Below are positions 7,318-14,565 of a stretch of DNA of 16,655 nucleotides, piece by piece. Location: positions 1-16,655 of IMG/VR virus record IMGVR_UViG_2619619134_000015; one strand, 5' to 3'. Source of the DNA: a virus (lineage: Duplodnaviria; Heunggongvirae; Uroviricota; Caudoviricetes). Each line of letters begins with the position of its first letter. The first letter of the stretch is position 1. Made by a program: the position numbers and the translations under genes. The notes under the pieces were generated by a model. It was not told the origin of the DNA. It ran no database searches and saw nothing but the letters and a program-made list of their open reading frames with translations.

Positions 7318-7450
7318 TTTTTGGGACTCCTGGCTGATTAAGTATGTCGATAAGGCGTTTCCATCCGTCACGTAATTTACGGGTGATTCGTTCAAGTAAA
7401 GATTCGGAAGGGCAGCCAGCAACAGGCCACCCTGCAATGGCATATTGCAT
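7286..7450 (-). CDS. cIII: CIII, FtsH/HflB inhibitor that stabilises CII (54 aa)
   Basis: The ATG at 7448-7450 begins MQYAIAGWPVAGCP..., the lambda CIII N-terminus. The ORF is 165 nt and is absent from the ORF track because it is under 60 aa. Confidence 0.8.
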   Translation of the reverse strand: MQYAIAGWPVAGCPSESLLERITRKLRDGWKRLIDILNQPGVPKNGSNTYGYPD

Positions 7451-7522
7451 GGTGTGCTCCTTATTTATACATAACGAAAAACGCCTCGAGTGAAGCGTTA
7501 TTGGTATGCGGTAACGCCGCGC

Positions 7523-11479: not shown

Positions 11480-12187
11480 TTAATAATTTCTCAGCCACTC
11501 CCTTGCCTCGATGTCATCCAGATGGCGAGATTGCTTCAGAATACCAGCCACATACTCCACCTTTGCTACTTGATGATAAGGCAACGTTATTGGTCTGTGG
11601 TCCTGGTTGATGCTTGTAAATTGGTATTCTCCATCTCTGTCATAGCCAAGAATCTTGATCATGTTGTGTCCTTCGATGGTTCTGACAAACACCTCATCAC
11701 CCGGGAATACTTTGGTGTTAGGCTCAATGAGTACATATTCTCCTGATTTTATTCTGGGCCACATGCTGTCTCCTTTCACACGAAGACCAAAGGCATCTGG
11801 ATCATCGCTATAAATCTTGAGCCACCCATCGCGTTCTTCGGTCATCTCGATGGCACCATCAACACCAAGAATTGCCTCACCAACCACGCGCACTAACCCT
11901 TTTTTTAATTTGCCAACAAATGAAAGAGTATCTTCATCATTCGCTCCATTTAACGAAGTGCCGTGCTGAAGCCAAACAACATCAACGTTTAGAAATTTCG
12001 CAAGCGCATTCATTTTTTCCTGACGCGGTAAAGACTCAGCATTAAACCATTTGCTAACGCCTTTGGACGAAAGAGAAAGGGCACGGGCTATAGCCATTCC
12101 CCTACCATGTTCATCAAGACCAGCTTCTTTACAGGCTTGCGCTAGCCGCTGGGCGAATTCTTTGCGCACTTTTTCATTCTGAACCAT
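11480..12187 (-). CDS. cI: CI-type prophage repressor (235 aa), HTH N-terminal domain plus LexA/S24-like self-cleaving C-terminal domain
   Basis: N-terminal HTH region (GMAIARALSLSSKGVSKWFNAE) and a C-terminal domain with the Ser (GDSMWP) and downstream Lys typical of the S24 peptidase fold. It is divergent from cro. It is not the lambda cI sequence. Confidence 0.85.
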   Translation of the reverse strand: MVQNEKVRKEFAQRLAQACKEAGLDEHGRGMAIARALSLSSKGVSKWFNAESLPRQEKMNALAKFLNVDVVWLQHGTSLNGANDEDTLSFVGKLKKGLVRVVGEAILGVDGAIEMTEERDGWLKIYSDDPDAFGLRVKGDSMWPRIKSGEYVLIEPNTKVFPGDEVFVRTIEGHNMIKILGYDRDGEYQFTSINQDHRPITLPYHQVAKVEYVAGILKQSRHLDDIEAREWLRNY

Positions 12188-12265
12188 GAGTACGATACTA
12201 AAGCACTTGCAAAAACTTTCAGTTCAATCATAATGCGTACTGAAAGTACGAAAAAGGATATTCCT
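12188..12265. promoter_or_regulatory. OR/pR/pRM region between cI and cro
   Basis: Candidate pR: -35 TTGCAA (12207-12212) and -10 CATAAT (12229-12234) at 16-nt spacing. A perfect palindrome CGTACtgaaaGTACG (12235-12249) and inverted 9-mers ACTTTCAGT/ACTGAAAGT are candidate operator elements. Confidence 0.45.
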
Positions 12266-12493
12266 ATGCAAAATCTTGATGAGCCGATTAAAGGTGTCGG
12301 CATACCTGAAGTTGCGAAGGCTTGTGGAGTTAGCGAAAGGGCTGTCTATAAGTGGCTCAAAAACGGCTTCCTCCCTAAGACTGAGTTTTTTGGGAAAACG
12401 AAATACGCCTCAAAAATCGAAGAGATTTCTGGTGGCAAATATCAAGCAAGCGAAATGCTTGAAATAAGTAAAAAGAACCTTCTGGCTGCATAA
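12266..12493 (+). CDS. cro: Cro-type repressor (75 aa)
   Basis: ATG at 12266 preceded by AAGGA. HTH motif AKACGVSERAVYKWLKNG. It is divergent from cI and followed by nutR. Confidence 0.7.
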   Translation: MQNLDEPIKGVGIPEVAKACGVSERAVYKWLKNGFLPKTEFFGKTKYASKIEEISGGKYQASEMLEISKKNLLAA

Positions 12494-12500
12494 GTAACAC

Positions 12501-12535
12501 CGCTCTTTATCAATCTGCACCGCCGACAACGCGGT
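12501..12535 (+). promoter_or_regulatory. nutR (boxA CGCTCTTTA plus boxB-like hairpin with GACAA loop)
   Basis: CGCTCTTTA at 12501-12509, then ACCGCCGACAACGCGGT at 12519-12535. A hairpin/T-rich stretch (cactcatcgaaagatgagtattagtgattattt) follows and is a possible tR1. Confidence 0.55.
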
Positions 12536-12599
12536 AACTAATTAAGCACTCATCGAAAGATGAGTATTAGTGATTATTTACCTATGGAAATAGTAAGAA

Positions 12600-12896
12600 A
12601 TGGAAAGAACAAGTTACAGCAAACTATCACAGCGTGACGTTGATCGCGCAGAAACAGATTTACTTATCAATCTGTCAGCTATTACCCAGCGCGGTCTGGC
12701 AAAGATGATTGGCTGTCATGAATCGAAGATAAGCAGAACGGACTGGCGGTTTATTGCTTCGGTCCTGTGTGCTTTCGGAATGGCATCAGACATCAGTCCG
12801 ATTAGCAGGGCTTTTAAGTATGCGCTTGATGAAATCATCAATAAAAAACGCCCGGCGGCAACCGAGCGTTCTGAACAAATCCAGATGGAATTCTGA
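12600..12896 (+). CDS. cII: CII transcriptional activator (98 aa), chimeric: divergent N-terminal part, lambda-identical C-terminus
   Basis: The C-terminus NKKRPAATERSEQIQMEF is identical to lambda CII. The N-terminal 80 residues are homologous in pattern but divergent. Confidence 0.8.
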   Translation: MERTSYSKLSQRDVDRAETDLLINLSAITQRGLAKMIGCHESKISRTDWRFIASVLCAFGMASDISPISRAFKYALDEIINKKRPAATERSEQIQMEF

Positions 12897-12917
12897 GATC
12901 ATTACTGGATCAATCCA
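12842..12917 (-). ncRNA. oop: OOP antisense RNA with its terminator
   Basis: On the minus strand, the 3' end reads GTTGCCGCCGGGCGTTTTTTAT, the characteristic lambda oop terminator. The body is antisense to the cII 3' end. The 5' end is estimated by lambda homology (GGATTGATCCAGTAATGA...). Confidence 0.6.
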
Positions 12918-12928
12918 CAGGAGTCATT

Positions 12929-13867
12929 ATGACAAATACAGCAAAAATACTCAACTTCTGCAGAGGTAACTTTGCCAAACAGGAGCGTAATGTGGCAGAT
13001 CTCGATGATGGTTACGCCAGACTATCAAATATGCTGATTGAGGCTTATTCAGGCGCAGATCTGACCAAGCGACAGTTTAAAGTGCTGCTTGCCATTCTGC
13101 GTAAAACCTATGGGTGGAATAAACCAATGGACAGAATCACCGATTCTCAACTTAGCGAGATTACAAAGTTACCTGTCAAACGGTGCAATGAAGCCAAGTT
13201 AGAACTCGTCAGAATGAATATTATCAAGCAGCAAGGCGGCATGTTTGGACCAAATAAAAACATCTCAGAATGGTGCATCCCTCAAAACGAGGGAGGTTCC
13301 CCTAAAATGAGGGACATCCCTCAAAACGAGGGAAAATCCCCTAAAACGAGGGATAAAACATCCCTCAAATTAGGGGATTGCTATCCCTCAAAACAGGGGG
13401 ACACAAAAGACACTATTACAAAAGAAAAAAGAAAAGATTATTCGTCCGAGAATTCTGGCGAATCCTCTGACCAGCCAGAAAACGATCTTTCTGTGGTTAA
13501 ACCGGATGCTGCAATTCAGAGCGGCAGCAAGTGGGGAACAGCAGAAGACCTGACCGCCGCAGAGTGGATGTTTGACATGGTGAAGACCATCGCACCATCA
13601 GCCAGAAAACCGAATTTTGCAGGGTGGGCTAACGATATCCGCCTGATGCGTGAACGTGACGGACGTAACCACCGCGACATGTGCGTGCTGTTCCGCTGGG
13701 CATGCCAGGACAACTTCTGGTCCGGTAACGTGCTAAGTCCGGCCAAACTCCGCGACAAGTGGACCCAGCTCGAAATCAACCGTAACAAGCAACAGGCTGG
13801 CGTGACAGCTGGAAAACCAAAACTCGACCTGACAAACACTGACTGGATTTACGGGGTGGATTTATGA
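12929..13867 (+). CDS. O: Replication initiator O (312 aa)
   Basis: MTNTAKILNF...TDWIYGVDL matches lambda O as remembered, except for a 13-aa insertion (GGSPKMRDIPQNE) that corresponds to two extra ori iterons. Confidence 0.95.
   Translation: MTNTAKILNFCRGNFAKQERNVADLDDGYARLSNMLIEAYSGADLTKRQFKVLLAILRKTYGWNKPMDRITDSQLSEITKLPVKRCNEAKLELVRMNIIKQQGGMFGPNKNISEWCIPQNEGGSPKMRDIPQNEGKSPKTRDKTSLKLGDCYPSKQGDTKDTITKEKRKDYSSENSGESSDQPENDLSVVKPDAAIQSGSKWGTAEDLTAAEWMFDMVKTIAPSARKPNFAGWANDIRLMRERDGRNHRDMCVLFRWACQDNFWSGNVLSPAKLRDKWTQLEINRNKQQAGVTAGKPKLDLTNTDWIYGVDL
13278..13401. repeat. ori-lambda-type iteron array within O: six roughly 18-bp iterons (TCCCTCAAAACGAGGGA-like) at about 20-bp periodicity
   Basis: Iterons at approximately 13278, 13298, 13317, 13337, 13361 and 13384, followed by an A-rich region (acaaaagacactattacaaaagaaaaaagaaaag). 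Confidence 0.85.
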
Positions 13868-14565
13868 AAAACATCGCCGCACAGATGGTTAACTTTGACC
13901 GTGAGCAGATGCGTCGGATCGCCAACAACATGCCGGAACAGTACGACGAAAAGCCGCAGGTACAACAGGTAGCGCAGATCATCAACGGTGTGTTCAGCCA
14001 GTTACTGGCAACTTTCCCGGCGAGTCTGGCTAACCGGGACCAGAACGAACTGAATGAAATCCGCCGCCAGTGGGTTCTGGCTTTCCGGGAAAACGGGATC
14101 ACCTCGATGGAACAGGTTAACGCAGGAATGCGCGTAGCCCGTCGGCAGAATCGACCATTTCTTCCATCACCCGGGCAGTTTGTTGCATGGTGCCGGGAAG
14201 AAGCATCCGTTATCGCCGGACTGCCAAACGTCAGCGAGCTGGTTGATATGGTTTACGAGTATTGCCGGAAGCGAGGCCTGTATCCGGATGCAGAGTCTTA
14301 TCCGTGGAAATCGAACGCGCACTACTGGCTGGTTACCAACCTGTACCAGAACATGCGGGCCAATGCGCTGACTGACGCGGAATTACGACGCAAGGCTGCC
14401 GATGAACTGACCTGTATGACAGCGCGAATTAACCGTGGTGAGACGATACCTGAACCAGTAAAACAACTTCCTGTCATGGGCGGCAGACCTCTAAATCGTG
14501 TTCAGGCGCTGGCGAAGATCGCAGAAATTAAAGCTAAGTTCGGACTGAAAGGAGCAAGTGTATGA
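13864..14565 (+). CDS. P: Replication protein P (DnaB helicase loader), 233 aa
   Basis: MKNIAAQMVNFDREQMRRIANNMPEQYDEKPQVQQVAQIINGVFSQLLATFPAS... matches lambda P as remembered. Its start overlaps the O stop (ATGA). Confidence 0.95.
   Translation: MKNIAAQMVNFDREQMRRIANNMPEQYDEKPQVQQVAQIINGVFSQLLATFPASLANRDQNELNEIRRQWVLAFRENGITSMEQVNAGMRVARRQNRPFLPSPGQFVAWCREEASVIAGLPNVSELVDMVYEYCRKRGLYPDAESYPWKSNAHYWLVTNLYQNMRANALTDAELRRKAADELTCMTARINRGETIPEPVKQLPVMGGRPLNRVQALAKIAEIKAKFGLKGASV

Follow-up and report, generated by a model that had tools for sequence, protein, structure and literature searches.

Is the cII gene of this lambdoid early region inherited as one piece, or is it a composite whose last codons have a different history from the rest? 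The question arises from a first-pass annotation that placed a mosaic crossover inside cII near codon 80, and we examined it within the window, by which we mean the whole 16,655-nt stretch of viral DNA that was analysed. The list of open reading frames gives an early region in the order cI (on the minus strand), cro, cII, O, and P. A cI-like repressor gene lies at 11480-12187 (minus strand) and cro at 12233-12493, followed by cII at 12600..12896 on the plus strand, which encodes a 98-aa CII-family transcriptional activator and is annotated as cII or CII in homologous records. Replication gene O (12929..13867, plus strand) is of the lambda/933W type, and P occupies 13864-14565. When the whole window is compared with the databases, its best relatives belong to the 933W group of Stx-converting phages (96-97% identity across roughly 56-60% of its length), and the closest relatives of the cro-cII-O stretch are 933W, P27, 1H12, and related phages. 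As part of the overall explanation developed below, it is very probable that the window carries the early region of a lambdoid phage or prophage resembling 933W (Stx-type). On the minus strand at 7405-7463, Rfam also matches the lambda cIII thermoregulator element (RF01804, Lambda_thermo; 88.5 bits) over its full length, which probably marks the start of a cIII gene.

The O gene is 97-100 per cent identical to that of lambda and 99-100 per cent identical to that of 933W. Relative to lambda it carries a 39-bp tandem duplication at 13276-13353, which gives the ori six O-binding iterons where lambda has four and accounts for the extra length of the product (312 aa, against 299 aa in lambda). This six-iteron arrangement agrees with the annotation in 933W and AU5Stx1. 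Of 5426 complete E. coli genomes, 2011 (37%) contain the region from 12560 to 12960. None of the 5426 matched it over its full length at more than 96.5 per cent identity, and the window's exact allele combination is absent from the complete E. coli genome collection searched.

The product of cII clearly belongs to the CII family. It matches the Pfam profile Phage_CII (PF05269) with E = 9.6e-32 and 109.5 bits (cut-off 21.3) over residues 1-92 of 98 and profile positions 1-91 of 91, and its gene lies where a cII gene is expected, between cro/nutR-tR1 and the replication genes. At the nucleotide level the body of the gene (codons 1-78, 12600..12834, plus strand) is of the type found in phage 21, HK97, HK022, and 933W, with 88-100 per cent identity to 933W, phage 21, ev207, and P27 and a noise-level 50-62 per cent to lambda. 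At the protein level, BLASTP of the 80-residue CII body against lambda CII residues 1-79 gave no alignment even at E ≤ 100, in keeping with the earlier claim that the first 80 or so residues differ from lambda. Since BLASTP did not align the CII bodies, distant homology was established with Pfam.

Identity to lambda (NC_001416) was then measured by gapped alignment in 30-nt sliding windows and by aligning the two sequences without gaps from the stop codon. Across cro and cII to about 12830, the 30-nt windows are 43-67 per cent identical to lambda, which is the noise level that optimised gapped alignment yields for unrelated DNA. Identity is 100 per cent from 12844 and stays at 87-100 per cent through O and P past 14650, save for the 39-bp insertion in O. 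In the ungapped comparison, identity to lambda is unbroken over 12839-12889, with a single mismatch at 12838 and a TCA at 12835-12837 common to both sequences. Sixty of the final 62 nt of cII are identical to lambda, as are 57 of the final 58, and the difference in mismatch density between the body and the tail of the gene is highly significant (Fisher's test, P = 3e-8). The sliding windows thus give a step rather than uniform divergence, and the step is abrupt, passing from noise to 100 per cent within 5 nt, as at a lambdoid module boundary. The per-position match profile of 74 unique haplotypes jumps at 12835-12840. Taken together, alignments, BLAST HSP ends, contig ends, and this match profile place the junction at 12834..12839.

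These results support a true mosaic boundary within the cII reading frame at codons 79-80. The proposal of a crossover near codon 80 therefore stands, though the interval originally assigned to it began 55 nt too far to the left. The 18 C-terminal residues of CII, NKKRPAATERSEQIQMEF, equal lambda CII residues 80-97 at all eighteen positions, again as proposed. The tail as a whole (12835..12896, plus strand; codons 79-98 and the stop codon) encodes (I)INKKRPAATERSEQIQMEF and is 96.8 per cent identical to both lambda and P27 and 98.4 per cent identical to ev207.

Several smaller features of the cII body were noted along the way. A pattern match at the start of the gene (12609..12622, minus strand) gives a candidate CII-binding/pRE -35 site, TTGCTGTAACTTGT, of the TTGC-N6-TTGC type. 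The count of such matches is by itself not above chance, and phage 21 has its annotated CII site, ttgynnnnnnttgy, at the corresponding position. Codons 1-34 (12600-12700) are 100 per cent identical to ev207 and 82-92 per cent identical to 933W, 21, P27, and 1H12. The cro gene of ev207 is unrelated, and its homology to the window begins near 12575; this comparison suggests a further joint directly upstream of cII. At the other end of the body, codons 77-80 (12830-12839), which adjoin the conserved tail, are hypervariable among alleles of the 21/933W type (D-E/G-I/L-T/I-N/K), and the DEII version carried by the window is a singleton among the 74 haplotypes.

What does the step adjoin? It lies 3-8 nt beyond the 3′ end (12842) of the predicted oop RNA. 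Coordinates for oop were carried over from lambda (38675-38599) with an offset of 25757, lambda cII ending at 38653, and they place a 77-nt antisense RNA gene on the minus strand at 12842..12918, overlapping the last 55 nt of cII (expected, about 52-55). In lambda, OOP is described as 77 nt long, its 3′ end overlapping cII over the 55 C-terminal nt of that gene, stop codon included (Hayes et al. 2012, PMC3349717). A terminator scan identified the oop intrinsic terminator tO inside the 3′ end of cII at 12843..12872 (minus strand), with a hairpin at 12872..12845 and a U-run (U6) at 12848-12843. Both elements are the same in lambda, which bears out the statement in the first-pass annotation that the terminator is lambda-identical. 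On the same strand, a promoter scan found a pO promoter-like site at 12926..12954 (-35 TTGAGT, a 17-nt spacer, and -10 CATAAT with TG), a leftward sigma-70-type promoter overlapping the start of the replication gene. Its position matches lambda pO, whose -10 ATTAT at 38684-38688 (PMC3349717) corresponds to 12927-12931 of the window.

The predicted oop RNA folds into two hairpins (z = -3.3), and the 102 nt from 12835 to 12936 are 97 per cent identical to lambda/HK633. The terminator hairpin is maintained across the five tail types compared, each represented by one sequence; in tails of the 933W type and the HK97 type, two compensatory base-pair changes (C-G to U-A and G-C to C-G) preserve the pairing. 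An Rfam scan of the window at gathering thresholds returned Lambda_thermo only and no oop match; Rfam may hold no oop family. In lambda the oop transcript down-regulates cII via RNase III (PMC3349717, PMC5869508, PMC12197685), and a 2025 review lists OOP as a feature of lambda and Stx phages (PMC12197685). By analogy with the lambda work, oop would be expressed and would regulate cII in this element as well.

The same segment encodes the part of CII that governs its stability in lambda. There, the C-terminal tail is reported to be the FtsH degradation signal, with the tag in residues 82-97 (Kobiler et al. 2002, as cited in PMC5869508). CII 1-81 is reported to be active and CII 1-80 inactive (Kobiler et al., as cited in PMC5869508), and the last seventeen residues are described as dispensable for activity and required for OOP regulation (PMC3349717). 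The window's CII shares its eighteen C-terminal residues with the lambda CII of structures 1XWR, 1ZPQ, and 8IGR, but here the tag sits on a body without BLASTP similarity to lambda CII, and we infer its function as an FtsH degron from lambda. Activation of pRE and pI and degradation by FtsH via the tail are likewise known for lambda, and in this element they are suggested by the identity of the tail sequence. At the joint, the 3′ end of oop on one strand coincides with the point where the degradation tail begins on the other. The joint therefore sits at a gene boundary and at a protein-domain boundary, and is a functional module boundary rather than an arbitrary point in cII.

We next compared the window with a panel of other phages. 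Homology to lambda and 434 begins at 12835 and runs on through O/P. HK633 is homologous over 12835-12936 only and Dewey over 12835-12892 only, and epsilon34 over 12840-12894 and part of O. The left ends of the BLAST HSPs thus fall at 12835 in four phages (lambda, 434, HK633, and Dewey) and at 12840 in epsilon34. Stx2_PV06-102 is homologous from 12200 to 12892 and divergent beyond, HK97 from 12610 to 12936, phage 21 from 12594 onward, and P22 over 12904-12936 only. Right ends cluster at 12892-12894, at the cII stop codon, or at 12936, where the next gene begins. An island of 58-102 bp is in this way common to phages that differ from the window in one or both flanks (HK633, Dewey, epsilon34, and Stx2_PV06-102). 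The same joint is also present in cII genes of phage 21, of the HK97/HK022 type, and of Stx phages, as well as in 37 of 119 IMG/VR contigs with the lambda-type terminator. The crossover proposed by the first-pass annotation is thus a true boundary in the cII reading frame, but it is not private to this sequence, and the joint is widely shared.

The boundary also has precedents in the literature. In the lambda/21 hybrids known as lambda imm21, the right-hand boundary of the substitution lies inside cII, to the left of oop, and the window's step is at the same place. The published description has the imm21/lambda boundary inside cII, to the left of oop, and the oop region conserved in twenty-three lambdoid phages (cf. 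PMC3349717). Phage 21 itself shares the window's cII body family (82-96% nucleotide identity) and has lambda-like O and P to the right of the step. It differs in its tail (KKKRPVCKTERSEQIQMEF), where five bases are changed and 3 nt are inserted in the terminator loop, whereas the window's tail is almost purely of lambda type; cI and cro of the window are of the 933W type, not the 21 type. With respect to the conserved oop/pO region (Hayes et al. 2012, Fig. S1, PMC3349717; 'sequence 5' of Clark et al. 2001, HK620), the window has the 33-nt pO/oop 5′ sequence and the terminator, and its homology blocks with HK97, HK633, and P22 stop at 12936, where the downstream gene starts. It is one more instance of this region, with no substantive difference.

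A separate observation concerns Dewey (L009) and L057/L120. In these, the cII body is itself chimeric, with an N-terminal half like P22 c1 (MELTSTRKKANAITS...) joined to a lambda-type C-terminal half (LLAVLEWGVVDDDMARLARQVASILT) and a lambda-type tail, and a second recurrent joint in mid-cII appears likely in some phages.

To survey body and tail alleles more widely, IMG/VR was scanned for the exact 26-nt core of the lambda-type terminator, which yielded the 119 contigs mentioned above. This sample contains many near-identical prophages and was not de-replicated, and all counts drawn from it are of sequences, not of independent events. Under stricter parameters, homology to the window ends at 12839-12843 in 83 of the 119. 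The contigs carry at least three body families (lambda type, 21/933W type, and epsilon34 type) whose nucleotide sequences cannot be aligned with one another, together with the chimeric Dewey-type body and three divergent singletons. All body families carry the tail (N/K)KKRPAATERS(E/D)QIQM(E/D)F at the same position. Because the three main families all match Pfam Phage_CII, their bodies are distant homologues rather than analogues.

Each contig was assigned a body class from 12640-12830, a tail haplotype from 12839-12896, and a downstream-gene class from 12940-13140. Bodies B1-B4, the tail haplotypes, and right flanks R1-R8 occur in more than thirty combinations that share the boundary. For measures of association, the table was limited to the common classes (B1/B2, T1-T3, and R1-R4; n = 89), given that Cramer's V over all classes is dominated by singletons and uninformative. 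Within this set, which was not de-replicated, tail haplotypes follow the replication module downstream of them (Cramer's V = 0.79; mutual information 0.97 bit of 1.55) and not the cII body (V = 0.26, 0.05 bit), and body and downstream class are unassociated (V = 0.20). When only unique combinations are counted, the association of tail and replication module is not significant in an underpowered comparison (n = 9, P = 0.07). All four combinations of B1/B2 with T1/T3 occur. T1 and T3 are six nucleotides apart, and since each is found with both lambda-type and 21/933W-type bodies, the bodies and the distal tail have been exchanged repeatedly, and recurrent mutation does not account for the pattern.

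Comparison with 933W modified this picture. The early region of 933W resembles that of the window in its cI-cro-cII-O-P order and in its 312-aa, six-iteron O, and identity is high over oR/cro (98%), cII codons 1-34 (88%), cII codons 35-78 (95%), and O (99-100%). It falls to 68 per cent in the nutR-tR1 spacer and to 71 per cent in the cII tail, where 933W has its own tail and terminator allele ending in KKKSPVAAGDSKQIDMQF (44 of 62 nt identical to the window). The tail is significantly more divergent than its flanks in this comparison (Fisher's test, P = 1e-5 against the left flank and 6e-10 against the right). The HK97 cII gene ends in KKKSPAATEDFKQIDMQF, and the 933W and HK97 tails, both about 71 per cent identical to the window's, encode other peptides. 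The idea of a lambda tail common to all cII genes of the 21/933W type was rejected on these grounds. What had looked like one boundary became a patch with two: compared with 933W, the closest well-known relative, the window has as its tail a 62-bp lambda-type segment with 933W-like DNA on both sides. The Stx phage P27 and phage ev207 have the same tail type as the window. As 933W and HK97 demonstrate that the tail is able to diverge, common descent, and not only constraint, underlies its near-identity to lambda.

The nutR-tR1 spacer between cro and cII (12494-12599) is a further point of difference among these relatives. It is 68 per cent identical to 933W and P27 and 98 per cent identical to 1H12, beside a cro gene that is 98 per cent identical to all three alike. 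The spacer is probably another small mosaic patch.

The explanation that we favour, and hold to be very probably correct, is that the cII-tail/oop cassette is a module seam that is reassorted by homologous recombination, with the resulting joints filtered by viability. The window's cII would then be a composite of a body from the 21/HK97/933W family (12600-12834) and a short lambda-type cassette making up the final 62 bp or so (12835-12896). This cassette would play a triple role, as the flexible CII tail (the FtsH signal in lambda), as the 3′ part of the antisense oop RNA that pairs with cII mRNA, and as the oop terminator, and it would lie where the immunity module (cI-cro-cII body) meets the replication module (oop-O-P). 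Many lambdoid phages that otherwise differ from one another carry related versions of it, which would supply short homology for recombination that reassorts the modules. If viability requires that the CII fold, the tail, oop, and the terminator all be kept, surviving joints should pile up right outside the 3′ end of oop. The window would be one product of this process, with cI/cro of the 933W type, a cII body of the 21/933W type, tail and oop of the lambda type, and O-P of the 933W/lambda type. Homologous exchange inside the island of about 55-100 bp is the route that we propose for it.

How would the same data look if no recombination had taken place? Under simple vertical descent, a body free to drift would stand beside a tail held nearly identical by its triple constraint as degron, antisense RNA, and terminator. 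The common ancestry of the bodies is real (all families fall within Phage_CII), the tail segment does overlap oop and its terminator, and compensatory changes preserve the hairpin in other tail types. Yet the 97-100 per cent identity to lambda goes on for about 1.8 kb through O and P, intergenic positions included, the 933W and HK97 tails have diverged to about 71 per cent with different peptides, and each of the four pairings of body and tail haplotypes is found. Against 933W, moreover, the tail is the most divergent segment rather than the most conserved. Vertical descent is contradicted by these observations and hardly credible. A recent crossover of one lambda-like with one 933W-like phage, private to the window's immediate ancestry as a literal reading of the proposal would have it, fares little better and is quite unlikely, even though it would fit the tail being a patch relative to 933W, the exact allele (DEII junction codons with tail T1) being a singleton among the 74 haplotypes, and the lack of any complete E. 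coli genome above 96.5 per cent over the whole of 12560-12960. The same body with a lambda-type tail is found in ev207 (98.4% tail identity), P27 (96.8%), 1H12, and thirty-seven IMG/VR contigs, and phage 21, isolated in the 1950s, has its body/tail boundary at this position. The flanking O gene is also as near to 933W as to lambda, so a lambda parent is unnecessary.

A stronger competitor to reassortment by homologous recombination, if still clearly the less probable of the two, attributes the joints to illegitimate recombination at random positions followed by selection for a functional boundary, with the island as a consequence and not a substrate. Three body families share no nucleotide homology to the left of the joint, and their first union with the tail thus cannot have drawn on homology there; joint positions also vary by a few nucleotides (12834/12835 in the lambda type and 12839/12840 in the epsilon34 type). 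This leaves the later free reassortment of joined bodies with tail and replication alleles unexplained, for which homologous exchange is simpler. The two mechanisms are not mutually exclusive: illegitimate events followed by selection may first have united unrelated bodies with the tail, which is compatible with later homologous reshuffling. A narrower idea, which we regard as doubtful, is that the 62-bp tail/terminator segment is an independently exchangeable mini-cassette whose alleles (lambda, 933W, HK97, and 21 types) travel with the replication module rather than with cII. If it were true, the oop/tO/CII-degron allele would be co-adapted with O-ori, for example through the reported interplay of oop and ori in replication inhibition, and a tail swap would retune CII half-life, oop pairing, and the lysis-lysogeny set-point in Stx phages.

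The joint in this cII gene is real, ordinary, and already known, being a classical module boundary that is widely shared by lambda-like phages. It has little weight as a discovery and stands as a clean, textbook case of lambdoid mosaicism, in which the joint respects the degradation tail, the antisense RNA, and the terminator. In practical terms, annotation of the window should add oop on the minus strand, and the body and tail of cII alleles in Stx-type phages should be typed separately. The tail allele, which is of the lambda type here and of another type in 933W, could affect how stable CII is and how OOP pairs, and through these lysogeny and the induction of Stx phages.
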